Source: Candidatus Hopanoidivoransaceae bacterium (GTDB lineage Bacteria > Actinomycetota > Acidimicrobiia > Acidimicrobiales > Hopanoidiivorantaceae). Taken from it: a stretch of DNA of 64,000 bases. A program made the translations under genes and the position numbers. Numbering within the stretch: the stretch's first letter is position 1; every line of letters starts with the position of its first letter. The notes under the pieces were generated by a model. It was not told the DNA's origin and searched no databases. It saw nothing but the letters and a program-made list of their open reading frames with translations. Below, piece by piece: positions 7,441 through 23,768 of the stretch. The stretch covers positions 2,342,605-2,406,604 of the forward strand of contig OZ241989.1 of the NCBI GenBank assembly GCA_965204495.1, read 5' to 3'.

Positions 7441-7525
7441 ACCGCTAGCCCCAACCGCTAGCCCCCAAAACCCTCCAGCCCGCTCTTTCTTCGGCGGCAC
7501 GACTCCCTCTGAGACTATCCGTCTG

Positions 7526-7574
7526 CCAGTCTGCCCACCAGCATCAGAGCCGTTAGCAGCAGGCGGGCTGGGCG
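7526..7574 (-). repeat. Fragment of the trkH 3' end (encodes RPARLLLTALMLVGRL)
   Basis: ccagtctgcccaccagcatcagagccgttagcagcaggcgggctgggcg aligns by eye with 22149-22197 of the intact trkH 3' end (caagcctgcctactagcatcagggcggatagcaggaggcgggctgggcg). The orientation is the same. Confidence 0.75.
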
Positions 7575-7612
7575 CAATGCTGATGCCGTAGTGTGGCGAG
7601 CGGATTGCGCTG

Positions 7613-7700
7613 GCGAAAAAATTTTATAATAAATGATGCAATGTGGCAAAAGTTGTATATAATGCATCAATAGCAGCTTTGCTCCGACAGCACAAGGAGA
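7613..7700 (+). promoter_or_regulatory. Conserved upstream block (putative promoter plus SD) of pilin-like paralog 2
   Basis: The block gaaaaaatttTATAATaaatgatgcaat...gTATAATgca...AAGGAGA is conserved upstream of paralogs 2, 3 and 4. TATAAT occurs at 7625-7630 and 7658-7663. The SD AAGGAGA at 7694-7700 lies 8 nt before ATG 7709. Confidence 0.4.
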
Positions 7701-7708
7701 TGCCAGCA

Positions 7709-8770
7709 ATGAAGATCGCCGAACCCAAGACCACCCCCCCCCGCTGTTCAGCTGACACCAGCGCAGCCGCAACCGCTCACGCAACCTCAGCCCCAGCCGC
7801 CTCCGCCCCCGCCGGCAAGACCGAACTCGGCTTCACGCTTCAGACGCTCATCGTCATGGCAGTCTTCACGCTCGCAGCCGTAGGAGTCGGCTTAGGCCTG
7901 CTAGCCGTCAACAGCGCATCCAGCAGCAGCTTTGAAGAAGCAGGCCAAACAGGAGTAGAAGCACGCTGCGCGCCCAACGAAATCTGGGACCCAGAACTTG
8001 AAAGCCGAGGCATAGGCGGCCCCGACAGCCAAGGCGGAATAAGAAGCAAACAGGTCGGCTGCGAGCCCTACTGCGGAACTTGGGAATACCTCTCAACAGG
8101 CACAAACGAAAACGGCGAATACGAACCAGCAGAATCCCCAGCATCCGCCAGACAATCAAGCATCGGCGGGCCAGAAGGCAACGGCGGTGTCTACAGCCAA
8201 AACATCGGCTGCTTCGCTCCCTGCTACTGGGAAATCTCTTACCCCACCGGGGTGTGGCGTCCTGCACCAGGAAATGTAAAGGGGACAACAAGTCTCCTGC
8301 GCTACTTTGACGACAACCGCGCTCCAGTGGCGGATCAACTCCGCTTGGGCGTCAACTACAGAAGATCCGCAGACTTGAGCGTTCCCATAGGCGACAATCC
8401 GGGCAACCTCCAGAAAAACAACGATCTGCAGCTTCAGCATGCAGTGCGAAACAAGGACGGCAAGCCTTACATTCTCACAAGACGGGATAACCTTCGGCGA
8501 TTCGGATCCAGGTATGTTACCGGCACACTTCCGCTGACCCCTGAACAGCTTGCTCTCGGACTTCCCACAGTTTTCACACCCAACTGGAGATCCATGGGAG
8601 ACGACCCCGGCGACACCGCCCGCAACGGCACCACCTGGGAAGACGAGAACTGGGAAATACGAGCCGACCCATACGAAAAGGAATGCACGATAGTCAACAT
8701 TAACCCGAGCCCCGGCTACCCCGAACTAGTCTGCTCCTCCGAATGGGACAACTGCGAACCCCGCCCCTAA
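7709..8770 (+). CDS. Cys-rich secreted protein with prepilin-like N-terminus, paralog 2
   Basis: The ORF track starts at GTG 7643. I prefer ATG 7709 because of the SD. The protein begins MKIAEPKTTPPRCSAD, has an Ala/Ser/Pro-rich ~40-aa leader, then ELG-FTLQTLIVMAVFTLAAVGVGLGLLAV (like prepilin G|FTLIE but with Thr at +5), then a Cys-rich ectodomain ending VCSSEWDNCEPRP. Confidence 0.75.
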   Translation: MKIAEPKTTPPRCSADTSAAATAHATSAPAASAPAGKTELGFTLQTLIVMAVFTLAAVGVGLGLLAVNSASSSSFEEAGQTGVEARCAPNEIWDPELESRGIGGPDSQGGIRSKQVGCEPYCGTWEYLSTGTNENGEYEPAESPASARQSSIGGPEGNGGVYSQNIGCFAPCYWEISYPTGVWRPAPGNVKGTTSLLRYFDDNRAPVADQLRLGVNYRRSADLSVPIGDNPGNLQKNNDLQLQHAVRNKDGKPYILTRRDNLRRFGSRYVTGTLPLTPEQLALGLPTVFTPNWRSMGDDPGDTARNGTTWEDENWEIRADPYEKECTIVNINPSPGYPELVCSSEWDNCEPRP

Positions 8771-8933
8771 ACCCTCCAGCTTCCAAAGCCCCCCCCCAGC
8801 ATCCAGACCCTCCAGCCCTCTGCATCAGACGGGCTGGGGGCTTCAACCCAGCCTCCCTGAAACCTCCAGCCTCTGATTTTGCCCCAGCCTGAGCTTGGGG
8901 AAACCAGCGGGCATTGCCTAGGATTTTGCTCCC

Positions 8934-9019
8934 GAAAAAATTCTATAATAAATGATGCAATATGATGGATGTCGTGTATAATGCAACTATTGCAGCTTTA
9001 TATAGAGAGCACGAGGAGA
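8934..9019 (+). promoter_or_regulatory. Conserved upstream block of pilin-like paralog 3
   Basis: Same block as 7613-7700. TATAAT occurs at 8944-8949 and 8977-8982. The SD GAGGAGA is at 9013-9019, ahead of ATG 9028. Confidence 0.4.
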
Positions 9020-9027
9020 CCGCCGCA

Positions 9028-10074
9028 ATGAAGATCGCCGAACCCAAGACCACCCCCCGCTGTTCAGCTGACGCCAGCGCAGCCGCAACCGCTCACGCAA
9101 CCTCAGCCCCTGCCGCCTCCGCCCCCGCCGGCAAGAGCGAAGTCGGCTTCACGCTTCAGACACTCATAGTAATGGCGGTATTCGTGCTCGCAGCCGTAGG
9201 AGTCGGAATAGGCCTGCTAGCCGTAAACAGCGCCACCAGCGACGACTTTGAAGAAGCAGGTCAAACAGGAGTAGAAGCACGCTGCGCGCCCAACGAAATC
9301 TGGGATCCAGAACTTGAAAGCCGAGGCATCGGCGGCCCCGACAGCCAAGGCGGTGTACGAAGCAAGCAGGTCGGCTGCGAGCCCTACTGCGGAACTTGGG
9401 AATTCCTATCAACAGGCACAAACGAAAACGGCGAATACGAACCAGCAGAATCCCCAGCCGCAGCCAGACAATCAAGCATCGGCGGCCCAGAAGGCAACGG
9501 CGGAGTGTTCAGCCAAAACATCGGCTGCTTCGCTCCCTGCTACTGGTCATACACTAACGGTGTAGGGCGGCCTACAGCAACTAATGGAGTTATAGCGAAT
9601 ACTACTAGCTTGCAATATCACGACGACAACCGCGCTCCTGCAGTAAAGCAAGTACGCTTGGGAGTCAACTACAAGAGGACCTCTTCCACTCATGTTAGAT
9701 GGCAGAGTGATATACAAATCGACAACATTTACAACAATCTAGACGTTGGTAAGCCCTTCATCATAGCCCGCAACGGTCGTGGAAGTGGTGTAGCACCGGG
9801 AACTCCACTTACTCCTGCATTAATAGCAGAACTGGCTCCTGCATTCCCGGGAGGAATAGTTCCCACAGTTTTTAAACCCAACTGGAGAACTAACAACCGA
9901 GATGCACGAAATCCAGTTACTGACCCTGGAGGCACTGCCCGCAACGGCAACGACTGGGAAGACAACAACTGGGAATACAGAGCCGACCCATACAACAAGG
10001 TATGCACGATAGTAAACATAACCCTTGACGATCAAGTCGTCTGCTCCTCCGAAGACGGCAGCTGCGACCCCTAA
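9028..10074 (+). CDS. Cys-rich secreted protein with prepilin-like N-terminus, paralog 3
   Basis: The ORF track starts at 8962; the SD supports ATG 9028. The N-terminal ~180 aa are almost identical to paralog 2. The middle region is divergent. The C-terminal motif EDNNWEYRADPYNKVCTIVNI...VCSSEDGSCDP is conserved. Confidence 0.75.
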   Translation: MKIAEPKTTPRCSADASAAATAHATSAPAASAPAGKSEVGFTLQTLIVMAVFVLAAVGVGIGLLAVNSATSDDFEEAGQTGVEARCAPNEIWDPELESRGIGGPDSQGGVRSKQVGCEPYCGTWEFLSTGTNENGEYEPAESPAAARQSSIGGPEGNGGVFSQNIGCFAPCYWSYTNGVGRPTATNGVIANTTSLQYHDDNRAPAVKQVRLGVNYKRTSSTHVRWQSDIQIDNIYNNLDVGKPFIIARNGRGSGVAPGTPLTPALIAELAPAFPGGIVPTVFKPNWRTNNRDARNPVTDPGGTARNGNDWEDNNWEYRADPYNKVCTIVNITLDDQVVCSSEDGSCDP

Positions 10075-10178
10075 ACCCTGAAACCTCAAAACCCCAACCA
10101 GCCAATGCCCGCCGGCATACCCGCCCACCCCAAAGCCACCCCACCAGCCTGCTCCCCCAAACAGGACACCTGCCCCCT

Positions 10179-10405
10179 CCTCATCAGAGCGGCTAGCAGC
10201 AGGCGGGCCGGGCGCAATGGTGCGGAAATGCGGCAAGGGCTGCGTCTGACATCACCCTTCACCCCCTGCCGAAGCAGCAGCAACCGCTAGCAGTGCCAGC
10301 ACTCGCAGTCGCAGCGAGGAGGCGGGATGCCGGCATTCACATGTCTGAGTAGAAACGAGACGCTTTCGGATGGGGTCTGAAGCTCACCGCAACATGATGT
10401 CCGAT
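10179..10405. repeat. Composite junction: trkH 3' fragment, pilin-gene 5' (TM-coding)-like fragment, and a copy of the AlbA_2 gene 3' end
   Basis: 10179-10213 (ctcatcagagcggctagcagcaggcgggccgggcg) is trkH-like. 10287-10405 (ctagcagtgccagcactcgcag...ggatgccggcattcacatgtctgagtagaaacgagacgctttcggatggggtctgaagctcaccgcaacatgatgtccgat) matches 16317-16435, which is the stop region of the intact AlbA_2 gene. Confidence 0.8.
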
Positions 10406-10533
10406 TTAGCCTGTGCTTGTTCCCGACAATTTTCTCTATGAGAAAAGAGACGAAGCCGATACGCTACGGGCAATGCTAGCCGAGGTACGCATTTCATGGT
10501 TTACTAATGATGCTATTCTGCTAGAGTTCCCCA

Positions 10534-11073
10534 CTAATCATGGAGAGCACGCTTGTCTTCCGCTATTGCTGAGGCAGAGACTTCTGATATAAATGCTGCG
10601 ATAACGCTGGTGAGCTTCAGCTTTGGATATGCCTCAGCAACCAGGGCATACAAGTTTTTTTCAGAAATTATGCCTGTCGTTCTTGCGAGAAATATGGCAT
10701 CTTTTTTGTCTACTTCCCGGGATGCCGCTATTTTCATCGCCAGAATGCCCCTCTCGTCTGGTGTTTCAACAATCAATTTTCGGCCTGAGAACACCCTTTG
10801 CAAATTCAAAGGTATCCCTGTCGGCAAATTGCCTGCTGCTGAATCGTTCACCCACCAATATGCCAGACCATTCCTTTTGGCAACACTAGCTACAGCTTCT
10901 TTCAAGTACGCTGGCAAAAGATCCGAAGCGACATCCACATCTTTAGTTCTTCTATCAACAGCCAAAAATGCCATAGAAGCTCCGCCGACTATCACCAACT
11001 CGGTGAAAGGGCAATCCAGCAGCTCCTTGTCCAATTCATCAAACAGAACCAGCAATCTGAGCCTATCCAGCAT
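10534..11073 (-). CDS. Nucleotidyltransferase-fold protein (candidate toxin/effector of a 2-gene module)
   Basis: 179 aa. ELVIVGGASMAFLAVDRRTKDVDVASD fits the NTase-fold hG[GS]...DxD signature. It is a clear paralog of 29794..30303, sharing YWW.ND.AAG, RRVFSGRKLIVETPDER and LAMKIAASR. Its start lies 3 nt downstream of the stop of its upstream partner. Confidence 0.65.
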   Translation of the reverse strand: MLDRLRLLVLFDELDKELLDCPFTELVIVGGASMAFLAVDRRTKDVDVASDLLPAYLKEAVASVAKRNGLAYWWVNDSAAGNLPTGIPLNLQRVFSGRKLIVETPDERGILAMKIAASREVDKKDAIFLARTTGIISEKNLYALVAEAYPKLKLTSVIAAFISEVSASAIAEDKRALHD

Positions 11074-11076
11074 TCT

Positions 11077-11598
11077 CTAACCAATCTGACGCATCTTCAG
11101 CGAAGTACGGTTAAGCAAGTCTTCTTCAAAATACACACCGTGCTTCTCGCATGGACTCGGAGCGACAGCCTTTACATGCTTGCCGAAGGGCGTAGCAACG
11201 GAGCCCCCCGAAAGTGTCGCTTCAGGCACCAGACTGACTTCAACTGCCCAATCTGGCAAGGGCAGCCCATCTCGGTCGCAAAGAGAATGAACCACAGACG
11301 CCAACGCCGCCAAAAGAAACCTGTCAGCATCATGGGGAGGCTCTCCAGCCAGCATGTCCATACGGCGATGCGGCATGTAATTCCAGTTGTCAATGAACAA
11401 CAGCAACGGGCGTGTTATCATCATCGAATCCGCCTCCACCATCTCAGCGATCATGTCACCAGCAGCAGTAAACGGCACATCCCAAGATTCCTCAGTCGCC
11501 GCTCTCAGATCGGAACTCGCCTCAGCAGCCTGCTTGAACTCCAGAACTTGGCTCTCGCCCTGCCCTGTCAGGTCATCTATCTCGGCGTTGCTGCTCAT
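11077..11598 (-). CDS. Partner of the NTase-fold protein; chimeric 5' end taken from the AlbA_2 gene
   Basis: 173 aa. The first 23 aa (MSSNAEIDDLTGQGESQVLEFKQ) and ~250 bp upstream match the AlbA_2 gene 16367..17527. The remainder (AAEASS...AAGDMIAEMVEADSMMITRPLLLFIDNWN...) is paralogous to 30278..30748. Confidence 0.65.
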   Translation of the reverse strand: MSSNAEIDDLTGQGESQVLEFKQAAEASSDLRAATEESWDVPFTAAGDMIAEMVEADSMMITRPLLLFIDNWNYMPHRRMDMLAGEPPHDADRFLLAALASVVHSLCDRDGLPLPDWAVEVSLVPEATLSGGSVATPFGKHVKAVAPSPCEKHGVYFEEDLLNRTSLKMRQIG

Positions 11599-11893
11599 AA
11601 TGCAATTTTAGCATGTTCGCCTGCTGATGCCCGCAATCTCGCCCATAAATTAGGCAGGCAATCAATCCCAATGGCAACCGGGCCTGGTAAACAGCCCCCG
11701 CCCTTGAAAACCAGCCTTGAAACCTGGAATCAGCCTCTGCCAAGCTTCGCCACGCGGGCTGCCCGCCTGCCTTATCTGCCACCACAGCCAAAGCAGCCAG
11801 CCTCTGCGAAGCTTCGCGGCTGCTGGGACGAACATCAACAGCACAGCCACTATCCCCAGTCGCCCCACCAACATCAGAGCGGCTAGCAAGAGC
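11531..11893 (-). repeat. Repeat: AlbA_2 5' end plus upstream region, which itself contains trkH stop-proximal and 3'-end fragments
   Basis: 11531-~11848 aligns with 17460-~17785 (tgcttgaactccagaacttggctctcgccctgccctgtcaggtcatctatctcggcgttgctgctcataatgcaattttagcatgt...). 11728-11752 and 11797-11893 resemble the trkH stop region and 3' end at 22085-22190. Confidence 0.8.
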
Positions 11894-11965
11894 TGTGTGG
11901 CATCTCCAAAAGCAACATAGGCAGCAGGTTGCTGTCTCTCAGAATCGGCACGGAAACAAATTGCT

Positions 11966-12442
11966 TTAGAGATACTGGAGAGCTTTCTTTCTCTGATCCC
12001 GCACGAACCGCATCGTTTCGGCTGGCGTTTCCACCATTGAAGGGTCTTCAGAAAACGGGCGAAAAGACTCAGGCAGATCGGCGCGCCTTTGCGGCAAGTC
12101 CATCACCGCCCACCTTATGTAGCCTTCGTGGGCTTCTCTGAGGTGCTTCATCCCAATCCCAGCCCAGTCCGCTATCTGCTGCATCTCGCTCCAGCAGACA
12201 GCCTGCTCGCTGCCTTCGAGAATGTCTCGGACAGCGCAACAAAAACTCCTTCCGTCCGCCAAGACAGGCATATCTTCGCTATCTATGCTGGCGCAGTCGC
12301 CGCATTTCGAATGCCTGGATGCCTCTAGCTCGGACATCAGCTTCAACCGCAGAGTTTCCTGCCAGCGCATACGCTCCAACAACGACATCTCATCAGGCCG
12401 TGTTTTCATCATGTCTCCCAGCATATCCCACACATGCAGCAT
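11966..12442 (-). CDS. Hypothetical protein (158 aa)
   Basis: An uninterrupted ORF in the dominant island orientation. I recognise no motif. Flanked by junction repeats. Confidence 0.45.
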   Translation of the reverse strand: MLHVWDMLGDMMKTRPDEMSLLERMRWQETLRLKLMSELEASRHSKCGDCASIDSEDMPVLADGRSFCCAVRDILEGSEQAVCWSEMQQIADWAGIGMKHLREAHEGYIRWAVMDLPQRRADLPESFRPFSEDPSMVETPAETMRFVRDQRKKALQYL

Positions 12443-12660
12443 TCGCCGACATCTGCAATATCAGACCAGCGACCTCACGCTTCAAGCCCTCATAGCCACA
12501 GCAGTCCTGGTGCTTGATGCCAAGTTCGGCGGGCCGGCAGGTTTTTACACGGACTCTGAAAATGTGAAGCTCTACAAACGGCAAAGCGAGCGGCTTGTCG
12601 CTGCCTGAAGAAAACATCGGCGATATCTGATGAACGCTGCGTTCAGATTATCTGAAATGT

Positions 12661-12969
12661 TTACTTCACCCATGCAACCTTGGTGAACTTGAGTCCGCTG
12701 ACTGCCTTGTCATGGGCGGCGTCTAGTTCGTCGAACTTGATCGTCACCCAGCGTTCTATATCTTTGGCGAATCTTTCGTCGCCTTCTTCGTCTACCTGGA
12801 CATTGATGAACCTTTCGCCCCTTTTGTCTGTTCCCCATTCCACCCGATACAAGGATGAGCCACGCCGTTCTATGTGCATATGGCGGGTGCTTTTCCCTGG
12901 CGGATGGCGCCTCTCTTTTATGACATATCCCCGAAGTCCGCGCGGGAGGGTATCGCAAACGCAAGGCAT
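12661..12969 (-). CDS. DUF4160-like small protein
   Basis: 102 aa. RRHPPGKSTRHMHIERRG and ERWVTIKFDELDAAHDKA resemble, from memory, the DUF4160 signature (..H.PHIHV.., ..AWI.I..DEL). It lies downstream of a DUF2442 gene, as in the 15.2-16.1 kb pair. Confidence 0.55.
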   Translation of the reverse strand: MPCVCDTLPRGLRGYVIKERRHPPGKSTRHMHIERRGSSLYRVEWGTDKRGERFINVQVDEEGDERFAKDIERWVTIKFDELDAAHDKAVSGLKFTKVAWVK

Positions 12970-12981
12970 CGTCAGATGCTG

Positions 12982-13287
12982 CTACGCAGGAACGGAAACC
13001 GTCTCAAAAGCCGAACGCCACTGCTCGTATGGCATTTCTACAAGCTCCTCGGCGCAGAGAACGGGTGAGATGTGGCTGTCTTCTCCCCAGCAGGCCATCC
13101 CGGCATCTACTTTCCATCGGTTGAACCCTTCGGTGTCCCATTTGTCGCAGGGATGCCCCGTCCAGTCGGACATGTCTACCACGCCCGAGCGTCCGTCTTT
13201 CATCCACACATACAACTGCCTGCCCGTGGGCGCGGCCTCCACCGCTTTCACAGAGGGCAATTTAACTCGTGTTATAGTCGTTTTCAT
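12982..13287 (-). CDS. DUF2442 family protein
   Basis: The ORF track extends to 13545 across a trkH fragment. I start at ATG 13287 (MKTTITRVKLPSVKAVEAAPTGRQLYVWMKDGRSGVVDMSDW...FNRWKVDAGMACWGEDSHISPVLC), which looks like a typical DUF2442 fold sequence. Confidence 0.65.
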   Translation of the reverse strand: MKTTITRVKLPSVKAVEAAPTGRQLYVWMKDGRSGVVDMSDWTGHPCDKWDTEGFNRWKVDAGMACWGEDSHISPVLCAEELVEMPYEQWRSAFETVSVPA

Positions 13288-13738
13288 GCTTCCACTATAG
13301 CAGAAACCGACAGGCTCGGCATCTCCTGCTCTGAAAAAAATACTTGACAGCATCTGAGACGGCGAACGAGCATTTGCCGCCTTCAGCCTCTGCGAAGCTT
13401 CGCGGCTGCTGGGACGAACATCAACAGCACAGCCTCTGTTTCCAGTCGGCCCACCAGCATCAGGGCGGCTAGCAGCAGTCGGGTAGATCGCCGGCTGAAC
13501 GCCCGTGCTGAAGTCATGGAATTCGTCCCTCAACTCCTTTGTCACAACCTGCCAGTTAGCGTTGCTATTCGTATCTGTTCCTTATGATAACAAATCCTTC
13601 ACACTCTTCTCGCAGAGTGGCTGCGTATTTGCCAGCCTGTCTGTCGTTCAAATATCTGGGTATGTAGGCAACAATATGACCTTAGTAGTTTTCGTTATCT
13701 GGTTCATCTGGAAGACACAAACCTGAGTTATCTTCATG

Positions 13739-14281
13739 TCAAGCAGCTTCGGCGAAAAACATTTCTATCTTTGCAGCTATATCTTGCCACGCATTTTTGC
13801 TGCCATCAGATATAGAAAGCCCTCCCTCCTCGTGTCTGTCATCGTCCAGATAATAGCCAACCCAAGAAGCCGCTTTTTTCGCCGGGCATACTTCAAGCCT
13901 GAAAGTTTTACGCGCTCCGCTCCACTCTGCAGCAAACCCGCCGTTCTCCTCCTGATCCAAGCACACGGACACACCGCCGAGTCGACAGGTTACGCCAAGC
14001 AGCCTCAATCCGCCTGTCCGCACAAACCATCCCATGTCAGAGTCGGACACCGGGGTGTAATATCTCCGCGGATCTGGGCTGCCCAGACTTTCCAGCGCGA
14101 CAAGCGTAGGCTTCGGCAAGGCAAAGATTTCGTAGCCCTCGCCCTCTCTGAGAGTATTTTTTGAGGAATCTATAACTGTCATCGGAAACGCTTTCTCCCT
14201 TGCGACCACTTGCTCCCCATTATACAGGATGCTTGTCACTTCTGCCGCACTTCGCAAAACACCAGAAAATGCCGCTCCCAA
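13739..14281 (-). CDS. Hypothetical protein (180 aa)
   Basis: A long ORF in the island orientation. No motif recognised. A pilin-gene 5' fragment (14293-14350) lies just upstream. Confidence 0.45.
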   Translation of the reverse strand: MGAAFSGVLRSAAEVTSILYNGEQVVAREKAFPMTVIDSSKNTLREGEGYEIFALPKPTLVALESLGSPDPRRYYTPVSDSDMGWFVRTGGLRLLGVTCRLGGVSVCLDQEENGGFAAEWSGARKTFRLEVCPAKKAASWVGYYLDDDRHEEGGLSISDGSKNAWQDIAAKIEMFFAEAA

Positions 14282-14321
14282 TGCGAAGACGAGGTTGGCT
14301 TCACACTGTTGGCTTCACACT

Positions 14322-14837: not shown

Positions 14838-14868
14838 ACCTGATTGAAAGCGGCATCACATACTATTC

Positions 14869-15178: not shown

Positions 15179-15234
15179 TGCGTCTGACATCACCCTTCGC
15201 CCCCTGCTGAAGCAGCACCGACTAGCAGCCTCAG

Positions 15235-16132: not shown

Positions 16133-16224
16133 CACTTTGCAGCAAAGAAATACTGCCTCCGTCTCAGGACTGCGCCACCCGCTCCTGAAAGCACCAGACT
16201 GACTCCATCTACCCAGTCTGGCAA

Positions 16225-16330: not shown

Positions 16331-16366
16331 ACTCGCAGCCGCAGCGAGGAGGCAGGATGCCGGCAT

Positions 16367-17527
16367 TCACATGTCTGAGTAGAAACGAGACGCTTTCGGA
16401 TGGGGTCTGAAGGTCACCGCAACATGATGTCCGATGTCGACTATCTCAGGCGGCGGAGTGCCATGCGCTTCGCATTCCTCTCTCATCCGAGTTATCCCTG
16501 TGCCTGCTTTTTCCATCAAGTCGCCCCGCTGCATCAGATCGGCTAGCAGTTCGTTCCTCCGGACGCAAACACGAGCTATGTTCTCTTCGTTGACGCCTAA
16601 AGGGAAACCGCCTGGGCTTTTCACGCAAAGCCTGTCGCTGTGAAGTTCGAAGAACACATTCGCACCGCGCAAATTCCAGTCTCTGTGCACAACGGCGTTC
16701 ACCAAAGCTTCTCTCACGGCGTTCAAGGGATATTCAGGGATGTTCTCGCGGCGAGGCTTCCCTGTCATCACATAGGCAGTGTTCATGTGCCGCTCAAAAA
16801 GCTCCATAACGGCGTCAAACAGCAAAGACGCTGGCATCGCAAAATCTTCCCGCTTCACGATTCGGGTTCCGCTTGATCCGTTGAACAGCAGATATGTGAT
16901 CTGGCAGTGAGGTACGAATCTGCTAGGTTCCTCCGCGAACATCAGCACAGCGGCATTCCGCAACAAAAGACCGCTGCTGTGCTCCTCGGCTGCTGACAAT
17001 TTCGGCAGCAACTCCTCAGGCGGCATCTTAGCGGAAGCTGCCCCCAGCGAACTACGCCATGTCTCATAAGCACCGCTATTCATATCATCGGGGAAACCGA
17101 ATTCCCGACAAATTTTAGAATCAAAAGACGAGGGATTATAAACCGAGTTCATCTCCCTGACCTCTTTCTTCGACATTCTCACATTTTGCGTGCCTCTGCG
17201 AATGAAAAAGCCCCATTTGCACACAACAGGCTTCTCCGAACTTTCTTCCACCTCAGCCAGCAGACACCCTCCCAGCCTTTTCACATTCAGATGCACTGGA
17301 GGATCACAGGATCTGCTGTGCCCCTCAACTTTGGCCACAGTTCTGTTGTCGGTGTTCACACCAACAACGCTCCCGTCATCAGCGACACCAAGCACTATCG
17401 TGCCGCCCGATGCGTTGGCCATCCCGCATATGGATTTGGCCAAGTCTTTCGGGATAGACTGCTTGAACTCCAGAACTTGGCTCTCGCCCTGCCCTGTCAG
17501 GTCATCTATCTCGGCGTTGCTGCTCAT
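16367..17527 (-). CDS. AlbA_2 (Schlafen-like) domain protein with C-terminal ATPase-like/wHTH region
   Basis: 386 aa. GESQVLEFKQSIPKDLAKSICGMANASGGTIVLGVADDGSVVGV is the AlbA_2 signature as I remember it. The C-terminal part (REALVNAVVHRDW...GTGITRMREECE) is typical of the RecG-like/ATP-dependent DNA helicase-annotated regulators. Confidence 0.75.
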   Translation of the reverse strand: MSSNAEIDDLTGQGESQVLEFKQSIPKDLAKSICGMANASGGTIVLGVADDGSVVGVNTDNRTVAKVEGHSRSCDPPVHLNVKRLGGCLLAEVEESSEKPVVCKWGFFIRRGTQNVRMSKKEVREMNSVYNPSSFDSKICREFGFPDDMNSGAYETWRSSLGAASAKMPPEELLPKLSAAEEHSSGLLLRNAAVLMFAEEPSRFVPHCQITYLLFNGSSGTRIVKREDFAMPASLLFDAVMELFERHMNTAYVMTGKPRRENIPEYPLNAVREALVNAVVHRDWNLRGANVFFELHSDRLCVKSPGGFPLGVNEENIARVCVRRNELLADLMQRGDLMEKAGTGITRMREECEAHGTPPPEIVDIGHHVAVTFRPHPKASRFYSDM

Positions 17528-17785
17528 AATGCAATTTTAGCATGTCCGCCCGCTGATGCCCGCAATCTCGCCCATAAATTAGGCAGGCAATCCAATCCCA
17601 ATAGCAACTGGGCCTGGTAAACAGCCCCCCCCCCCTTGAAAACCAGCCTTGAAACCTGCAATCAGCCTCTGCGAAGCTTCGCCGCGCAGACTGCCCTCCT
17701 TCCTTTATCCGCCGCCACAGCCAAAGCAGCCAGTCAACCCCAGCGAAGCTTCGCCACGACAGGTGCAAACATCAACAGCACAGCA
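17460..17785 (-). repeat. Second copy of the AlbA_2 5'/upstream repeat (here attached to the intact gene)
   Basis: Aligns with 11531-~11848. It contains a C11 tract (17625-17635) and trkH stop-proximal-like sequence (17660-17683, aatcagcctctgcgaagcttcgcc) preceded by ttgaaaaccagccttgaaacc, which resembles the true trkH downstream spacer at 22060-22088. Confidence 0.8.
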
Positions 17786-18010
17786 CGACTTCTCCGTTGC
17801 CCTCAACCGCGGCTGCTACAACAGCCTTGCCCGTAAAGCACACATAAACCCAGCCCACCAACGCCTAGAACACCCATGGCAAAAACCGCCATGAGCCTAC
17901 AGCACGAGGAATTCGCAACATCATCTCAGCCTTCATATATAATTCCCTAAAATACGACTTGCTCACTCAGCAATTCCAACCGACTGCACAAGAAACGGAT
18001 ATCCCCGTCT

Positions 18011-18499
18011 ATGAAAACCGTTGAATCCCGCATTGACGATTTCCTCTCAGACACCGAGGGGCGACCCCTGCGTGTAGCCGTAGGCTATACGAGCGTCTGG
18101 GGCATAGCTTGGCTAGCACGCCGCACACAAGGCAGGCGGGTTGATTTGCTGATAGGAAACTGCAGCCCGCTCTACTTTAAAAATGCCACAGCTGAAGACA
18201 GACAGATGGCCTCGAAATTCCTAGATCGCAGCGATGTGCAGGTGAAGAACTGGTACAAGAGACGCGGAGGGGCAAAAGATATGAATGCTAAGGTCTGGAT
18301 ATCTAGAGACTCACATGACAGACGGAGATTGCTTTCAGGTTCAGCTAATTTGACTCGCAAAGGTTTGCGTGAGAATATTGAAGCGATAGGCGAGTATCGC
18401 GGAGAAGACCTGCAAAGGACAAGGCAGAACATCAACGAGATTTGCGACGACAAAGCTTGGGACGCAAAAGACAGACTGCGTGAGTATATAAATCGTTAG
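18011..18499 (+). CDS. Single-domain PLD/Nuc-like protein with a variant HKD motif
   Basis: 162 aa. DMNAKVWISRDSHDRRRLLSGSANLTRKGL resembles HxK(x)4D(x)6GSxN but has Asn where the catalytic His is expected. This is the only plus-strand gene in the island. TATATAAT lies ~70 nt upstream. Confidence 0.55.
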   Translation: MKTVESRIDDFLSDTEGRPLRVAVGYTSVWGIAWLARRTQGRRVDLLIGNCSPLYFKNATAEDRQMASKFLDRSDVQVKNWYKRRGGAKDMNAKVWISRDSHDRRRLLSGSANLTRKGLRENIEAIGEYRGEDLQRTRQNINEICDDKAWDAKDRLREYINR

Positions 18500-18821
18500 C
18501 CCGTGCTTGCTCCCGATGATGTTGCCTATGAGAAAAGAGACACCACTTTCGCTCTGCCACGCTCGCTAAGGTATGCGCCCCCTAGGAAAAACGACTGTCT
18601 GCCCACAGCAGCTTTCATCATGGGCAACCCAGTCTGCGCCACCCGACCCTAGTTGCTAGAAGGCAGATGCGTGCAAATGGGAAATTTTGGCAGTCAGACA
18701 TTGCGGCCGAAGCGATCCCTTATTTTGCGAATTCCGTCTATGGTTCCTCTGTAAACTCCTTCTTCAAGCCCAGATATAATTTGTGGCACTACGCTATTGG
18801 CGATTATTTGCTTATGTCTCT

Positions 18822-19451
18822 CTAGTTCGTCCTCCCTGCGGTAAGAGTTTCGTCTGCGATGGCGGCGAGAGCGGCTACTGCTCTTTCTCGTTTCACCGAC
18901 GGGAACATCTTCACGAAATCGTCCACGGTCTCCCCCGACATCAAGGATGTCAGCAAAGACGAAACGAATACTCTACTGCACGGGAACGAAGGCGCGCCAT
19001 GCAAAATACGCGGGTTTCTCTGAATCGCCGGCTCAACGACAACAGACGAGGGCTTGACTGGGCCAGGCGAAAGAGACGGGAACTCCCACGGTATTGCAGC
19101 TGTCTCAGCTGGAAGCTCCAATTCTTCCCCGAACAAACTCATAACGCTGTTCAAAGATTGAACAGACAACTCGCACGCCAACATATCAGACGGAATGCAC
19201 TCGCCGTCATTCTGCCATTTAATTCTCGGATCCGGCGAAATCAACCTAGCATCCAAAGCAGTCTCTCCGTCCCATGCAAATTCACAGCACAGAGGAAAGA
19301 ACAACTCTCTTTCCGTATCTAGGATCGCCGAGTGATCCGTCACTGCGCATTTCACAAGCCCCTGAGCTTTTGAACTAGCCTCGCTCGGCAAAAAATATCC
19401 CGAATCTAGCCAGAGCTTCAGACATGGTTTCCCCCACCCAAGACCCGACAC
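18822..19451 (-). CDS. Protein with a C-terminal DUF433-like domain
   Basis: 209 aa. NPRILHGAPSFPCSRVFVSSLLTSLMSGETVDDFVKMFPSVKRERAVAALAAIAD resembles DUF433 (dP.i..G.P...GTR..v..vl..l..G.s.eei...yP.l....i.aAL). The overlapping ORF 19375..19674 may be a frameshifted 5' part. Confidence 0.5.
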   Translation of the reverse strand: MSGLGWGKPCLKLWLDSGYFLPSEASSKAQGLVKCAVTDHSAILDTERELFFPLCCEFAWDGETALDARLISPDPRIKWQNDGECIPSDMLACELSVQSLNSVMSLFGEELELPAETAAIPWEFPSLSPGPVKPSSVVVEPAIQRNPRILHGAPSFPCSRVFVSSLLTSLMSGETVDDFVKMFPSVKRERAVAALAAIADETLTAGRTN

Positions 19452-19697
19452 TCCCGTTTTGGCTCTCCAGAGGAGGCGCGACTCTGATTTCCAAAGACGA
19501 ACGAAAACCAGCCCCAGAGCTCGCGTCGCATGCGAAAGACACGCCTACCTCGCGTACCGCACCATCTTGGCAGACATGATCCGCCGTCAACTCAACGAAG
19601 CAAATACTGCTGTGCTGTCCCATGAAAATAATCATACCACAATCCCGCTTCACCCCCACAGGCACTTTCTTCAAAGTCGCTGCTGGAGGCTCTGTTG

Positions 19698-19910
19698 AAG
19701 GCTAGCGGCAGGCGGGCCGAGTGAACTCCAAGAAATCGGCGTTGGGTCCCGCGTCTGACATCACCCTTCACCCCCTGCCGAAGCAGTGGCGAAACCGCTA
19801 GCAGCGCCAGCACCCCCAGCCGCAGCGGGGAGGCAGGATGCCCGCATTCACATGTCTGAGTAGAAACGAGACGCTTTCGGATGGGCTCTGAAGGTCACCG
19901 CAACATGATG
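19698..19910. repeat. Composite junction: trkH fragment, pilin 5'-like fragment, AlbA_2 3' end copy
   Basis: 19698-19749 (gaaggctagcggcaggcgggccgagtgaactccaagaaatcggcgttgggtcc) is like trkH 22170-22226. 19798-19910 is the fourth copy of the AlbA_2 3' end block. Confidence 0.8.
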
Positions 19911-20027
19911 TTTACACTGACCCTGAAAATGTGAAGCTCTACAAACGGCAAGGCGAGCGGCTTGTCGCTGCCTGAGGAAAACATCAGCGATATCTGATGA
20001 ACGCTGCGTTCAGATTATCTGAAATGT

Positions 20028-20336
20028 TTACTTCACCCATGCAACCTTGGTGAACTTGAGTCCGCTGACTGCCTTGTCATGGGCGGCGTCTAGTTCGTCG
20101 AACTTGATCGTCACCCAGCGTTCTATATCTTTGGCGAATCTTTCGTCGCCTTCTTCGTCTACATGGACATTGATGAACCTTTCGCCCCTTTTGTCTGTTC
20201 CCCATTCCACCCGATACAAAGATGAGCCACGCCGTTCTATGTGCATATGGCGGGTGCTTTTCCCTGGCGGATGGCGCCTCTCTTTTATGACATATCCCCG
20301 AAGTCCGCGCGGGAGGGTATCGCAAACGCAAGGCAT
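20028..20336 (-). CDS. DUF4160-like small protein (duplicate of 12661..12969)
   Basis: 102 aa, one substitution (Q/H) relative to copy A. Confidence 0.55.
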   Translation of the reverse strand: MPCVCDTLPRGLRGYVIKERRHPPGKSTRHMHIERRGSSLYRVEWGTDKRGERFINVHVDEEGDERFAKDIERWVTIKFDELDAAHDKAVSGLKFTKVAWVK

Positions 20337-20348
20337 CGTCAGATGCTG

Positions 20349-20654
20349 CTACGCAGGAACGGAAACCGTCTCAAAAGCCGAACGCCACTGCTCGTATGGC
20401 ATTTCTACAAGCTCCTCGGCGCAGAGAACGGGTGAGATGTGGCTGTCTTCTCCCCAGCAGGCCATCCCGGCATCTACTTTCCATCGGTTGAACCCTTCGG
20501 TGTCCCATTTGTCGCAGGGATGCCCCGTCCAGTCGGACATGTCTACCACGCCCGAGCGTCCGTCTTTCATCCACACATACAACTGCCTGCCCGTGGGCGC
20601 GGCCTCCACCGCTTTCACAGAGGGCAATTTAACTCGTGTTATAGTCGTTTTCAT
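20349..20654 (-). CDS. DUF2442 family protein (duplicate of 12982..13287)
   Basis: Identical 101-aa product from ATG 20654. The ORF-track extension to 20894 reads through the trkH fragment. Confidence 0.65.
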   Translation of the reverse strand: MKTTITRVKLPSVKAVEAAPTGRQLYVWMKDGRSGVVDMSDWTGHPCDKWDTEGFNRWKVDAGMACWGEDSHISPVLCAEELVEMPYEQWRSAFETVSVPA

Positions 20655-20898
20655 GCTTCCACTATAGCAGAAACCGACAGGCTCGGCATCTCCTGCTCTG
20701 AAAAAAATACTTGACAGCATCTGAGACGGCGAACGAGCATTTGCCGCCTTCAGCCTCTGCGAAGCTTCGCGGCTGCTGGGACGAACATCAACAGCACAGC
20801 CTCTGTTTCCAGTCGGCCCACCAGCATCAGGGCGGCTAGCAGAAGGCGGGCCGGGCGCAATGCTGATGCCCGCAGTGTGGCGAGCGGATAACACTGGC

Positions 20899-20984
20899 GG
20901 AAAAATTTATAACAAATGCTGCAATATAGCAAGAGATGTATATAATATATCTATTGCAGCTTTATTCCGACAGCATAAGGAGAT
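20899..20984 (+). promoter_or_regulatory. Conserved upstream block of pilin-like paralog 4
   Basis: ggaaaaatttataacaaatgctgcaat...gtaTATAATat...AAGGAGA. TATAAT is at 20941-20946. The SD at 20978-20984 lies 7 nt before ATG 20992. Confidence 0.4.
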
Positions 20985-20991
20985 GTCCGCA

Positions 20992-22044
20992 ATGAAGATC
21001 GCCGAACCCAAGACCCCCCCCCACTGCTCATCTGATGCCAGCGTCGCAGCACCTGCCGTTGCCAGCACCGTTGCCGCAACCGCCCCTGCACCTGCCGCCG
21101 CAGCAGCCGCAACCCCTCCCACCAGCAAGACCGAACTCGGCTTCACCCTTCAGACGCTCATCGTCACAGCAGTGTTGGTGCTCGCAGCCACAGGAGTCAC
21201 CGTAGGTCTGCTAGCCGTCAACAGCGCATCCAGCGACGACTTTGAAGAAGCAGGCAAAACAGGGGTAGAAGCACGCTGCCCAGCCCCCAACGAAGTGCAA
21301 GACCCCGAGCTAATCGGCAGAGGCGTGGCAGGTGTCAACAAGACATTCAGAGACATCAAATCCGACAACATCGGATGCAACCCAATCTGCGCCACCTGGG
21401 AATACTACGACCCGGGCCGAGCAGCCGCAGGAATCGGCGGCCCAGAAGGCAACGGCGGCGTATTCAGCAGCAACGAAGGCTGCTTCGCCCCCTGCTACTG
21501 GCAAGCAAAGAAAGGCGCGAACACTTATCGCCCAGACCGTTCCCCCAGCGCTTATTATTTTGTGGCCAACGCAGGGTCTGCTCTGGTCTATGACGACAGC
21601 AACAGAGCACCGGGCAATGCAGAAGTGCGCTTCGGAGTCGTCTACTCAGAGACAACTGCTGCAGGCCAGCGAGATCAGATAAGAGTAAGCGGGGCTGGAA
21701 GAGAAGTAGTAATTTATCTTCCGCTTAACGACAACCAGCGAATACCCGTAGGGGCTTACACACACAAACCACTGCTTCCAACCGATGGAAGTTCTGATAG
21801 AACTACAGATCCTTATTACACCGATGGTTATCACGGCATGGGATCTCACGACATTTCTCACTTCTGGGAATGGCATGTAGATCCCAAAGAAGAGAAGTGC
21901 TATGTAATCGACACATCCTTCCCCGACAATCCCACCCGCATAGTATGCACATCAGAGCAGGATTGGTGCGTTGACTCTGGCTACTCTGGAGCTCCTAGCG
22001 ACGGCGGTCGTCCAACAGCCGGCGGCGGCAGATGGGGCTGGTAA
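20992..22044 (+). CDS. Cys-rich secreted protein with prepilin-like N-terminus, paralog 4 (most divergent)
   Basis: The ORF track starts at 20860; the SD supports ATG 20992. The protein reads MKIAEPKTPPHCSSD..., then KTELG-FTLQTLIVTAVLVLAATGV, and carries the shared CxxNE, GCNPIC.TWEY, GGPEGNGG and CFAPCYW motifs and C-terminal VCTSEQDWC. It converges on trkH with a 44-nt spacer. Confidence 0.75.
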   Translation: MKIAEPKTPPHCSSDASVAAPAVASTVAATAPAPAAAAAATPPTSKTELGFTLQTLIVTAVLVLAATGVTVGLLAVNSASSDDFEEAGKTGVEARCPAPNEVQDPELIGRGVAGVNKTFRDIKSDNIGCNPICATWEYYDPGRAAAGIGGPEGNGGVFSSNEGCFAPCYWQAKKGANTYRPDRSPSAYYFVANAGSALVYDDSNRAPGNAEVRFGVVYSETTAAGQRDQIRVSGAGREVVIYLPLNDNQRIPVGAYTHKPLLPTDGSSDRTTDPYYTDGYHGMGSHDISHFWEWHVDPKEEKCYVIDTSFPDNPTRIVCTSEQDWCVDSGYSGAPSDGGRPTAGGGRWGW

Positions 22045-22088
22045 GCACCCCCCACACACCGCCGAAAACCCGCCCTCAAAGCAGCTAA

Positions 22089-23768
22089 TCAGCCCCTGCG
22101 GAGCTTTGCAGCTACTGGGGCGAACATCAGCAGCACAGCTACTATTTCAAGCCTGCCTACTAGCATCAGGGCGGATAGCAGGAGGCGGGCTGGGCGGGTG
22201 AATTCCAAGAAATTGGATGTGGGTCCGGCTTCGCCTAGGGCAGGGCCCATGTTGGACATTGCGCTTATCACTCCGCTCAGGCTGGTGAGGATGTCTGCGC
22301 CCGAAGCGGCTATGAGCGTGGTGCCGGCGGCTATGAAAACCACGAAAAGGGTGGTGTAGCCCAGCACTCTGCGGACTGTCTCTTCGGGCACGATGTCGGT
22401 GCCGGAGCGTATGGGGATGACTGCGTGAGGCTGCAGAGTCTGGCGGATGTTGCGCCAGATGTGATTTGTGGCTATGCGGACACGATAAACCTTGAGACCG
22501 CCCGATGTTGAGCCCACATTGCCTCCCATCACCATCAGCCCTAGCAAGAGCATCTGGGTGGCCGGAATCCAAAGGGCGAAGTCGCCGATGCCGCCTTCAC
22601 GGGCATTAGCGAAACCGCCGCTCGTTCCCATGCTCACCACGCTGAAGAAGCTGTCTCTCAACGACACCGCCCAGCCCGCGCCGCCCCACCAGACATTCAG
22701 GCACCAAGCCAGCAGAAAAACCCCGCCCAGTGCCTTCAAGAAGAACCGCAAGTCGGCCGATTTCGCATAGGGTTTGAAGTCGCCCCGCACGGCTTGATGA
22801 TGAATGGCGAAGTTCACAGCGCACACGAGCAGCCCCGCCGCTATGACTAGCTCCACCCAGACCGAGCCGAAATATCCGATGGAGGAGTTGTAGGGCGAGA
22901 ACCCCCCGATAGCCGCCGTTGAGAAAGCGTGGGCGACCGAATCGTAAAGACTAGGCCCCGGCACCGCAAACAGCAACAGAGCGATGGCCCCGGTGAAACC
23001 GCAATAGAGATACCAGAGCCAGCGGGCAGTCTGCTTGACTCTCGGCTCCAGGCGGTCGGAATCTCCCGGGGCTTCGGCTCCAATGAGCTCCAAACCGCCC
23101 ACCCGCAGGCGGGGCAGCACGCTGACCGCCAGCACCACCATGCCCATCCCCCCGTACCATTGCGTGATCTGTCGCCACATGAGCATCCCCCGCCCGTGCT
23201 GTTCAATGTCGGCCAGCACGGTGGCGCCGGTGCATGAGAATCCAGAGACGGATTCGAACAGCGCGCTGTCCCAGCCAGACCAGCCGAACACCGAAGCGTC
23301 CAGTACATAGGGCAATGCGCCCACCACCGAGCAGATCAGCCAAGTCCAAGCCACTGTTGCGAAGACGGTGCTGCGAGCGGAAAACTCGGTGCCTGAATAT
23401 TCCTTCGGGGTGCTGGAGTAGAACCAAAGCCCCAGACCCAGCCCGCCGCATATTGCCGCCGATGCCAGCAGAGCCACCTCGCCGTGCGAAGTGCTGGATC
23501 CCCACTCCACGAGCGCGGCCAGCACCATCCCCGGGCACAAGAACAGCAGAGAGATGCCGAGCATCTTCATCTGCAAGCTGTCAATGCGCTTCTTGGAAGA
23601 ACCTAGAAGCTGGCCTCTCTCCAGTCGCAGAGACTTCATCAGATCGCGAAGAGGCGCCTTGACCCTGCTCGCCAGTCTGAAAGCTTCCGTCATGCCCCTG
23701 ATTTCGCTCGCCGGAGCCTCGGCTGGCCTTTCGTCCATCTCCTGCTCGCTCGTCTCATGCTCGCTCAT
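22089..23768 (-). CDS. trkH: Trk/Ktr-type K+ uptake membrane subunit TrkH (copy 1)
   Basis: Polytopic membrane protein with repeated pore-like GF..TG/SGGF segments (SGFSCTGATV, GGFSPYNSS, GTSGGFAN, GSTSGGLKV). C-terminus ...NMGPALGEAGPTSNFLEFTRPARLLLSALMLVGRLEIVAVLLMF. I start at ATG 23768 (MSEHETSE...), which makes an ATGA overlap with the upstream trkH stop. The ORF track extends to 23891. Confidence 0.9.
   Translation of the reverse strand: MSEHETSEQEMDERPAEAPASEIRGMTEAFRLASRVKAPLRDLMKSLRLERGQLLGSSKKRIDSLQMKMLGISLLFLCPGMVLAALVEWGSSTSHGEVALLASAAICGGLGLGLWFYSSTPKEYSGTEFSARSTVFATVAWTWLICSVVGALPYVLDASVFGWSGWDSALFESVSGFSCTGATVLADIEQHGRGMLMWRQITQWYGGMGMVVLAVSVLPRLRVGGLELIGAEAPGDSDRLEPRVKQTARWLWYLYCGFTGAIALLLFAVPGPSLYDSVAHAFSTAAIGGFSPYNSSIGYFGSVWVELVIAAGLLVCAVNFAIHHQAVRGDFKPYAKSADLRFFLKALGGVFLLAWCLNVWWGGAGWAVSLRDSFFSVVSMGTSGGFANAREGGIGDFALWIPATQMLLLGLMVMGGNVGSTSGGLKVYRVRIATNHIWRNIRQTLQPHAVIPIRSGTDIVPEETVRRVLGYTTLFVVFIAAGTTLIAASGADILTSLSGVISAMSNMGPALGEAGPTSNFLEFTRPARLLLSALMLVGRLEIVAVLLMFAPVAAKLRRG

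Follow-up and report, generated by a model that had tools for sequence, protein, structure and literature searches.

A hypervariable gene-cassette island between trkH and gltB of an uncultured Acidimicrobiales bacterium, probably built by repeated insertion into the trkH 3' end

How does an intact gene come to be followed by a long series of partial copies of its own 3' end? The question is raised by a 64,000-nt stretch of DNA (the window) from Candidatus Hopanoidivoransaceae bacterium (Acidimicrobiales; assembly GCA_965204495.1, contig OZ241989.1, positions 2,342,605-2,406,604 of the forward strand), in which trkH is separated from gltB, its conserved downstream neighbor, by an island of small genes at window positions 6362-22088 (15,727 bp) that is bounded by the trkH stop and gltB. 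The bacterium is uncultured and its nearest public genomes are metagenome-assembled genomes (MAGs), some of them named as sponge symbionts; the bacterial population is probably sponge-associated. In our view, this hypervariable island of gene cassettes probably arose by repeated insertion into the last ~145 nt of trkH.

Copies of the trkH end

The gene and its repeated part, here called J, are organized as follows, with positions in J numbered backward from the final base of the stop codon (= 0).

22089-23891, minus strand: trkH, longest open reading frame (ORF) 600 aa, Pfam TrkH (E 4e-52), second of two tandem paralogues
22089-22233, minus strand: resident J, the final 145 nt of trkH (48 codons with the stop), the sole repeated part of the gene

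A trkH start at 23768, as called in sister contigs, is likely and would give a protein of 559 aa; this form is 99% identical to P0001, and exact-sequence look-ups of the 600-aa and 559-aa forms return no record. An earlier note, made from the DNA letters alone, had described at least eight same-orientation fragments of the trkH end downstream of the gene. BLASTN of the trkH end (window 22000-22400, 400 nt) against the whole window yields ten same-strand matches at 7.5-20.9 kb (71-88% identity, E 2e-3 to 6e-28) and no further match at E<0.01 in the 64 kb, and it recovers all of the coordinates given in that note within a few bases, all in trkH orientation:

7528-7574, trkH strand: trkH-end match, 85% identity, E 2e-9
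10182-10214, trkH strand: trkH-end match, 88% identity, E 3e-6
11680-11750, trkH strand: trkH-end match, 71% identity, E 2e-3
11789-11892, trkH strand: trkH-end match, 78% identity, E 3e-19
13383-13483, trkH strand: trkH-end match, 82% identity, E 4e-24
15131-15184, trkH strand: trkH-end match, 78% identity, E 9e-7
17609-17685, trkH strand: trkH-end match, 75% identity, E 8e-8
17722-17784, trkH strand: trkH-end match, 79% identity, E 5e-10
19700-19755, trkH strand: trkH-end match, 75% identity, E 1e-5
20750-20857, trkH strand: trkH-end match, 83% identity, E 6e-28

The fragments cover different sub-segments, as the note had said. A-type pieces run from about -107 to the stop (20857-20750, 13483-13383, and 11892-11789, with short versions at 10222-10170 and 7574-7526), B-type pieces run from -143 to about -87 (19755-19700 and 15184-15131), and C-type pieces combine the final codons and the stop with ~56 nt of spacer (17685-17609 and 11750-11680). 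No repeats of other trkH parts, of the upstream trkH paralogue, or of gltB (5' fragments included) are found in the island. Self-comparison reveals a 940-bp, 99% identical duplicate (12544-13483 = 19911-20850) that contains the copies at 13383-13483 and 20750-20857, and a 329-bp, 90% identical repeat block (11527-11847 = 17456-17784) that holds the fragment pairs at 11680-11892 and 17609-17784; one left flank is common to the copies associated with pil genes (described below) at 7526-7574, 10170-10222, and 20809-20857. Because several fragments share duplications, the repeat block, or a flank, the ten are not all independent events, and the eight fragments first reported are present without being eight separate integrations.

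A repeat-rich region from a metagenome source is a place where collapsed or chimeric repeats could be expected, and the earlier note had named them as a danger. However, seven of nine tested fragment junctions are spanned by other assemblies at 93-100% identity, six of these seven by contigs from other ENA assembly accessions (L092, L096, and L106; L and P numbers are our handles for loci and proteins), while at the 10222-10170 junction other contigs reach only to within ~100 nt. Since other assemblies span the junctions, the fragments are not an assembly artefact; with the same junctions recurring in other samples and assemblies, including on contigs of 0.2-2.4 Mb, that explanation has a negligible probability.

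Exact-protein look-ups identified 14 further arrays from at least six ENA assembly accessions (L081, L082, L087-L096, L105, and L106). The A- and B-type window pieces are truncated forms of J. The longest copies span -143/-145 to 0 (L087:7605-7748, L094:16043-16187, L091:12744-12907, and L105:10007-10150), and, taken over all copies, homology to trkH begins near -145 and extends to the stop or as far as +56; no such homology beyond -145 was detected by sensitive local alignment, and the idea that such homology continues past a deletion was dropped. Almost all copies that reach -143 are preceded by one non-trkH leader (...CTGCTTCGGCAGGGGGCGAAGGGTGATGTCA); a second leader type has only GGTGATGTCA in common with this main leader, and one copy type (L081:9316, also in L105 and L106) runs on into true trkH sequence instead of a leader.

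The joints of J are clustered on the right and scattered on the left. Right-hand breakpoints cluster at -87 +/- 3, where B-type copies end within -84 to -90, just after CTGCTGCTAG, and pass into four unrelated flanks, and at 0 to +5, where the TGA of resident trkH or of J is followed within 0 to +5 nt by at least four unrelated cargo sequences and by the original gltB leader. Left-hand breakpoints lie at -143, -107, -100, -95, -80, -59, -50, and -23, with A-type copies beginning at -107, -100, or -95. CTGCTAG coincides with frequent synteny breakpoints and is only a lead, because the motif lies inside the repeats; enrichment of a GAGGCTG/GGCTGA motif was uninformative, and the suggestion that a degenerate J right arm gave rise to the leader was abandoned, with alignment scores mostly not above those of shuffles. 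In L105:10001-10150 (P0198) and in P0199, the gene calls treat a complete J and its leader together as an intact 49-aa ORF (MSDAGP...AKLRR.); this putative ORF starts at an ATG within GGTGATGTCA, with a G-rich stretch upstream.

The J copies have the character of coding sequence. The copy at 20750-20857 differs from the resident end by 11 synonymous-only and 5 nonsynonymous changed codons (dN/dS 0.12), and across all arrays, 20 distinct copies set against the resident end, leaving out one misregistered gapped match, have proportions of synonymous differences (pS) of 0.27-0.67 and of nonsynonymous differences (pN) of 0.03-0.17, with dN/dS of 0.03-0.33; the pooled values of pS 0.51 and pN 0.14 include the misregistered copy (L081:7840). 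The strains' trkH genes diverge by only ~2-6%. J copies are 71-89% identical to resident ends of the same species and 61-74% identical to sister-species ends, and resident ends are 70-77% identical to sister-species ends, so that J is about as far from the resident ends as these are from those of sister species. Because the frame is kept and the differences are mostly synonymous, the copies look like former working ends, and J sequences appear to have served for a long time as the coding end of a trkH gene; insertions that each turned part of the arriving J into the working end would be expected to leave such a history. Some copies bear an in-frame stop, a frameshift, or a truncation, and therefore not all are maintained in their present position. 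All 12 arrays that cover the resident gene have it at full length, and the C-terminal 48 aa of TrkH are identical or differ by one residue in three translated ends.

Empty sites and differently filled arrays

Related genomes show what the locus looks like without the island. gltB follows trkH in 75 of 80 Acidimicrobiia loci, either directly or with one aminopeptidase gene between them. L001, the closest genome (82% identity in its best TrkH segment), is colinear with ~35 kb of the window and has an empty site, with ~60 bp from the trkH stop to the gltB start, and four more sister lineages (TrkH P0002-P0005, 83-88% identical to that of the window) are also empty; the trkH-gltB spacer of the five is 40-157 bp. 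The island is thus an insertion specific to one species-level clade, since the sister lineages have empty sites. ORF lists for a few other Acidimicrobiales lineages (L025, L041, L068, L005, and L049) show 3-6 kb or more between trkH and gltB, or loss of the adjacency, with inserts that differ in content from the window island.

The far border retains traces of the end that the island displaced. L081 has a decayed trkH end, GCTGTGCTCTTGACGCTAGCACCAGTAGCGGCAAATCTTTCGGAGGCTGA, directly beside the conserved gltB leader, and an old-end remnant (-59 to +1, z 10-14 versus shuffles) lies ~65 nt upstream of gltB in six of nine gltB-containing arrays (L081, L087-L089, L091, and L095), at the position of the stop in empty-site relatives. 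Because this remnant adjoins gltB, the island sits inside the old trkH end and not just in the spacer. The old end is eroded in the window, L092, and L093, and the window has a possible vestige of it (...CTCGCTGCTGA) at ~6435-6445.

The contents of the window island, from trkH to gltB, are listed here; R2 (~115 bp, four occurrences) and R3 (~85 bp, three occurrences) are further repeats, and SLFN denotes Schlafen.

20858-22088, plus strand: pil4 module, convergent gene 20860-22044 and D1 spacer; membrane-anchored, Cys-rich, lineage-restricted family
20750-20857, minus strand: J copy, A-type, -107 to 0, frame open through the stop; 83% identity, E 6e-28
19911-20749, minus strand: cassette o187/o102 (ORFs 20349-20894 and 20028-20336) and R3 (19911-19995); 99% duplicate of 12544-13382
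19756-19911, minus strand: R2 (19798-19911, copy of the SLFN/AlbA_2 gene 3' end) and non-trkH leader ...CTGCTTCGGCAGGGGGTGAAGGGTGATGTCA
19700-19755, minus strand: J copy, B-type, -143 to -84, breaking off right after CTGCCGCTAGCC
18011-19674, both strands: DUF433/PLD cassette (Pfam), DUF433 18822-19451 (minus), small ORF 19375-19674 (minus), PLD-like nuclease 18011-18499 (plus)
17609-17784, minus strand: two partial J copies, 17722-17784 (-50 to +12) and 17609-17685 (-23 to +56)
16317-17527, minus strand: Schlafen/AlbA_2 and HATPase_c_4 protein (Pfam; gene 16367-17527), with PADLOC matches to domains associated with prokaryotic Argonaute (pAgo)
15235-16279, minus strand: DUF2442/DUF4160 pair (Pfam), DUF2442 15554-16279, DUF4160 15235-15564
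15131-15232, minus strand: leader (15185-15232) and J copy, B-type (15131-15184, -143 to -90)
13484-15104, minus strand: R3 (15021-15104), R2 (14908-15021), and cassette o171/o180 (ORFs 14322-14837 and 13739-14281)
13383-13483, minus strand: J copy, A-type, -100 to 0; 82% identity, E 4e-24, dN/dS 0.12
11966-13382, minus strand: second copy of o187/o102 (ORFs 12982-13545 and 12661-12969), R3 (12544-12628), and o158 (11966-12442)
11680-11892, minus strand: J copies, 11789-11892 (-95 to +12) and 11680-11750 (last codons, stop, spacer)
10534-11598, minus strand: cassette of a 173-aa ORF (11077-11598) and a DUF6036 nucleotidyltransferase (10534-11073)
10170-10405, minus strand: R2 (10287-10405), leader (~10247-10286), and short J (10170-10222, -107 to -75)
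6586-10074, plus strand: three further pil paralogues, 8962-10074, 7643-8770, and 5'-truncated 6586-7440
7526-7574, minus strand: short J copy among the pil genes, -107 to -61
6362-6428, minus strand: conserved gltB leader
1487-6361, minus strand: gltB, glutamate synthase large subunit, conserved downstream neighbor of trkH

The segment 13484-15104 separates the left half from the right half of one J, and 17609-17685 retains, besides the stop and the spacer, what is left of the 3' end of a pil gene. R2 derives from the 3' end of the Schlafen-like gene and the sequence downstream of it (16317-16435).

The other arrays have flanks 92-97% identical to those of the window, and the eight islands with both borders in view are 8.6-15.7 kb long. 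All draw on a common pool of ~10 cassettes, 92-100% identical, whose order and copy number vary, and each of the 14 has one to seven internal trkH-end copies in BLAST searches, always on the trkH strand. The cassette nearest to trkH is pil4 in the window, L081, L093, and L105, the only arrays in which pil4 is seen to adjoin trkH (it probably does so too in L092, whose contig begins within pil4); it is o187 in L082 and o158 in L087-L089, L091, and L095, and in L090 and L094, trkH is followed by an o158 remnant and then by DUF2442/DUF4160. At the other border, gltB is always adjoined by two or three pil genes. One DUF4160 protein recurs with identical sequence on 14 contigs, and among the matches listed, ten of ten lie within this island, eight with trkH and/or gltB in view. 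The earlier note had made its hot-spot reading depend on polymorphism of this kind, and the aligned loci of relatives supply it, with empty and differently filled trkH-gltB sites in 5 empty lineages and 15 differing arrays.

Some steps of remodelling can be followed between close pairs. L091 is ~970 bp longer than L095, with the crossover inside the ~30-nt near-identical leader at the left edge of J, and L089 is ~1 kb longer than L088, with a deletion at a 7-nt microhomology in a cargo gene; the arrays are thus remodelled both by repeat crossover and by microhomology deletion. Breaks in synteny that separate the window from the other arrays are concentrated at the stop of trkH and along the borders of J, R2, and R3, with others elsewhere. 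In L082, the resident trkH end is a mosaic of resident-type and J-type variants and is joined at the stop to the o187 cassette; the notion that L082 uses the window's 20750-20857 copy as its working end was rejected, the end being mostly a resident-type mosaic with only the post-stop flank in common.

Assembly of the island and rival explanations

On the reading that we consider probable, the mobile unit would be a 0.5-2 kb module without a recombinase, mostly co-oriented with trkH and carrying toxin-antitoxin-like or defense-like genes, whose junction module would consist of the conserved non-trkH leader and J, which at 145 bp mimics the coding 3' end of trkH. A unit, presumably as a circular intermediate, would enter by a single Campbell-type crossover between its J and the resident end, which would insert the unit, rebuild a full-length trkH, and leave a hybrid J behind the cargo, with older ends and cassettes being pushed toward gltB. 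J would be under purifying selection for the TrkH C-terminal peptide, with synonymous sites drifting, since the incoming J would partly become the working end. The crossover of J with trkH could be performed by a recombinase encoded elsewhere in the genome or by rare homology-driven recombination, and the arrays would later be reshaped by crossovers in the leader, J, R2, and R3 and by microhomology deletions. More tentatively, the locus may be an integron-like system that dispenses with IntI and attC, in which recombinase-less cassettes are captured and released at the coding 3' end of trkH by a recombinase encoded elsewhere, the site being the selected 145-bp J.

Pfam searches with all likely genes among the window ORFs of 100 aa or more, together with precomputed Pfam matches for the genes of the 14 other arrays, reveal no recombinase, and replication, capsid, and conjugation genes are lacking in all 15 arrays. 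A dif-like site (CATAAT-N6-TTATGT, a weak test) has no match beyond chance and none at the junctions. The J peptide occurs in 3 proteins among 5.8 billion, and the two contigs that were looked up are further arrays of this island.

Several observations weigh against the insertion reading. Neither the 64-kb window nor any of the 15 arrays contains a tyrosine or serine recombinase, a transposase, or a mobilisation gene, no cassette was seen in circular or free form, and no J was found outside this locus; the recombinase or mobilisation genes with a trkH-like attP that the earlier note had proposed to look for did not turn up in the window, the 15 arrays, IMG/VR, or the JGI metagenomes. All leader-bearing J copies have GGTGATGTCA at their left edge and therefore descend from one or two founding junctions, not from many independent captures. 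Many J copies are truncated at scattered positions, and some have stops or frameshifts. The longest exact run common to J and the resident end is at most 14 nt, and 14 nt of identity is short for efficient homologous exchange by RecA-type recombination. Both of the resolved recent events are explicable without a site-specific enzyme. Finally, the nucleotide diversity of the resident end, 0.057 versus 0.022-0.046 upstream, is only a modest rise, and it was accordingly dropped as proof of exchange with J.

A local process could account for part of this picture: unequal crossing-over would have duplicated the trkH end (first as a trkH end plus pil unit), cargo would have arrived by rare illegitimate events, and deletions and homologous exchange among strains would have done the rest, J staying protein-like since deletions between J and the resident end would now and then return J to service. 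The 940-bp duplicate and the pil-type J copies with one common flank fit such a process, as do the two resolved events of repeat crossover and microhomology deletion and the mosaic end of L082. R2 fits as well; fragments of the SLFN 3' end also pile up, and gene-end debris is therefore not unique to trkH. A distant Acidimicrobiia MAG (L011:11478-14538) provides a fitting, independent example, a 1.54-kb tandem duplication of the last 98 nt of trkH and a convergent lipoprotein gene in which the trkH-derived coding parts are >90% identical (~94%), the whole units 80%, and the lipoproteins 70% at the protein level. However, contiguous, colinear units that diverge neutrally from a recent local template describe the L011 duplication and the 940-bp duplicate but not most J copies, and duplication and deletion within one chromosome cannot permute cassette order. 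Moreover, J has pS of 0.3-0.7 and dN/dS of ~0.1, far older than the strains and unexpected for idle copies; at least four unrelated cargos and the gltB leader are joined 0-5 nt from the stop; there are no gltB-side fragments; and with exact matches of at most 14 nt, homologous recombination of J with the resident end would be inefficient. As a full account, the local process therefore seems to us rather unlikely. The tandem duplication that the earlier note had offered as an alternative survives in part: it explains the 940-bp duplicate, the pil units, and L011, and duplication of a trkH end with its convergent pil gene probably contributed the pil-type copies, but it leaves most J copies and the permuted order unexplained.

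Insertion can also be imagined with larger elements, in which integrase-bearing elements (prophages, integrative and conjugative or mobilizable elements [ICE/IME], or tycheposon-like elements) integrated in tandem at a trkH attB and were whittled down to their cargo. The layout is that of published tandem accretion, with direct repeats of the target end, an intact target, and empty sites, but no integrase, replication, capsid, or conjugation genes remain in 15 arrays, the units are 0.5-2 kb with a common leader, and no matching attP is found on viral or JGI contigs (a pattern of leader and J left arm has 0 matches in IMG/VR and 0 in JGI metagenomes), all of which makes such decayed elements improbable. 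The claim of repeated integration into the trkH end thus stands as to insertion, the restored gene, and the ends pushed outward, and fails as to classical integrative elements, the units being 0.5-2 kb long and sharing a junction module. A chromosomal integron or cluster of attC sites lacking integron-integrases (CALIN), with cassettes moved by IntI via folded attC sites, would match the co-oriented, small, often toxin-antitoxin-like cassettes, the 100-300 bp repeats between them, and the order permuted among strains. Yet no intI lies beside the array or in the 64-kb window (the upstream neighbors are trkH, trkH, and trkA), leader plus J shows no attC-like folding on either strand (z +1.0 and +1.1 versus shuffles; resident end z -0.5), and the repeats are coding mimics of a gene end and not imperfect palindromes, with no Rfam match (6-24 kb gives two sub-threshold chance matches only); this possibility is very remote, and for the classical family it is already largely refuted. 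Weighed against these, insertion of small modules at the trkH end remains our preferred explanation.

Cargo, neighborhood, and known systems

The cargo consists of small genes, mostly on the trkH strand, together with several orphan ORFs; the PLD-like nuclease (18011-18499, with PADLOC matches that are DrmC/ZacB-like) and the four pil paralogues are on the opposite strand. The pil genes are named for an invariant GxTLQTLIV motif, which is followed by a membrane helix and a domain with conserved cysteines. They are present in two to four copies per array and have no Pfam match, and pil and orphan cargo proteins have no NCBIfam matches; an AlphaFold2 model of pil4 (41 homologues, predicted local distance difference test score [pLDDT] 48) is too poor for a fold search. 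Among 5.8 billion proteins there are 77 pil homologues (28-96% identity), nearly all from ENA assemblies and apparently of the same lineage. The L001 genome, with its empty trkH-gltB site, has four pil paralogues, the one inspected adjoining a Fic gene. ORF 11077-11598 is chimeric, in that its first 23 residues and the region upstream, with two J pieces in it, duplicate the beginning of the Schlafen/AlbA_2 gene, and the rest is the partner of the DUF6036 protein. Within the Schlafen-like gene, a 32-nt segment at ~16518-16549 (minus strand), CTGCTAGCCGATCTGATGCAGCGGGGCGACTT, resembles the J core and right arm and encodes ELLADLMQRGDL versus LLLAALMLVGRLE in TrkH, by chance or as a trace of recombination.

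A relative of one cassette lies elsewhere in the window. The segment 29640-31345, an insertion relative to L001 between two convergent core genes, contains a DUF6036 nucleotidyltransferase (29794-30303, minus strand) and a 173-aa partner (30278-30799, minus strand); the pair (29794-30799) is a paralogue, 69% identical in nucleotides, of the island pair at 10534-11598, and the insertion has no flanking gene-end repeats. A second defense-like stretch at 36000-49000 codes for HEPN proteins (37210-37686 and 39014-39526), an N6/N4 DNA methylase (39998-42583) fused to or overlapping with a ResIII helicase gene (42573-45431), and a DUF433 protein (46878-47558), and G+C falls to 0.38-0.43 at 47-49 kb. 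A 589-aa leucine-rich-repeat protein at 62219-63988 is eukaryote-like, and eukaryote-like repeat proteins are often reported in sponge symbionts. Upstream of the island, the tandem trkH paralogues (23765-25222 and 22089-23891) have overlapping reading frames and lie downstream of trkA (window 22089-25222 and 25302-26762), and the order trkA-trkH-trkH-gltB is kept in related loci whose gene calls were inspected. There is no tRNA gene in the window.

If correct, the insertion reading would describe a private, rapidly reshuffled set of defense-like and toxin-antitoxin-like genes at one address, without visible mobile machinery there, and would add trkH, a protein-coding gene end, to the hot spots of accretion. 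Its attachment sequence would also have to encode a working protein tail, with a signature of selection that makes it a testable example, and because many of the 15 differently ordered arrays come from one long-read metagenome, recombination could be tested on existing reads. Should the recombinase-driven, integron-like variant hold, the locus would give a symbiont population a strain-individual defense and toxin-antitoxin repertoire.

No report of trkH as an integration target was found in the literature searched, in agreement with the earlier note, but protein-gene 3' ends, which that note had called much rarer targets than tRNA genes, are not unusual targets; Salmonella genomic island 1 (SGI1) integrates at the 3' end of trmE (PMC8409611). 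Tandem accretion is described for tycheposons at Prochlorococcus tRNA genes, Dehalococcoides ssrA islands, streptococcal ICEs and cis-mobilizable elements (CIMEs) at the fda 3' end, and SGI1-type elements at trmE (PMC8409611, PMC3146451, and PMC7563491). The trkH island resembles these in having a 3'-end target restored by a copy on the element, same-orientation old ends piled outward, empty sites, and strain-variable content. It is unlike them in lacking integrase, excisionase, replication, and transfer genes in 15 arrays, in its single 0.5-2 kb cassettes, in a repeat that is 145 nt long, protein-coding, and under purifying selection, and in its target, trkH. Accretion of tycheposons at tRNA genes is the closest described picture, although tycheposons carry integrases and the island does not. 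CIMEs are similarly modules without recombination genes bounded by att-like repeats of the target end, but they depend on a cognate ICE at the same att, and no such partner was found here.

The Vibrio superintegron, with its Vibrio cholerae repeats (VCR), and CALINs are long arrays of small co-oriented cassettes, many of them toxin-antitoxin genes, with repeats between them and a strain-dependent order. The island shares with such sedentary integrons its co-oriented small cassettes, the related repeats between them, and an order that differs among strains, but it has neither IntI nor folded attC sites and is anchored in the coding end of a housekeeping gene and not at attI. Tandem duplication of a gene together with its neighbor's end has counterparts in L011, the 940-bp duplicate of the window, and the pil units, but leaves the permuted order, the precise joints at the stop, and the old, synonymous-biased divergence unexplained. 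Set among these systems, the locus is best placed as a form of gene-end accretion without local recombination genes that is integron-like in layout, and it supports the earlier note's integration reading in part.

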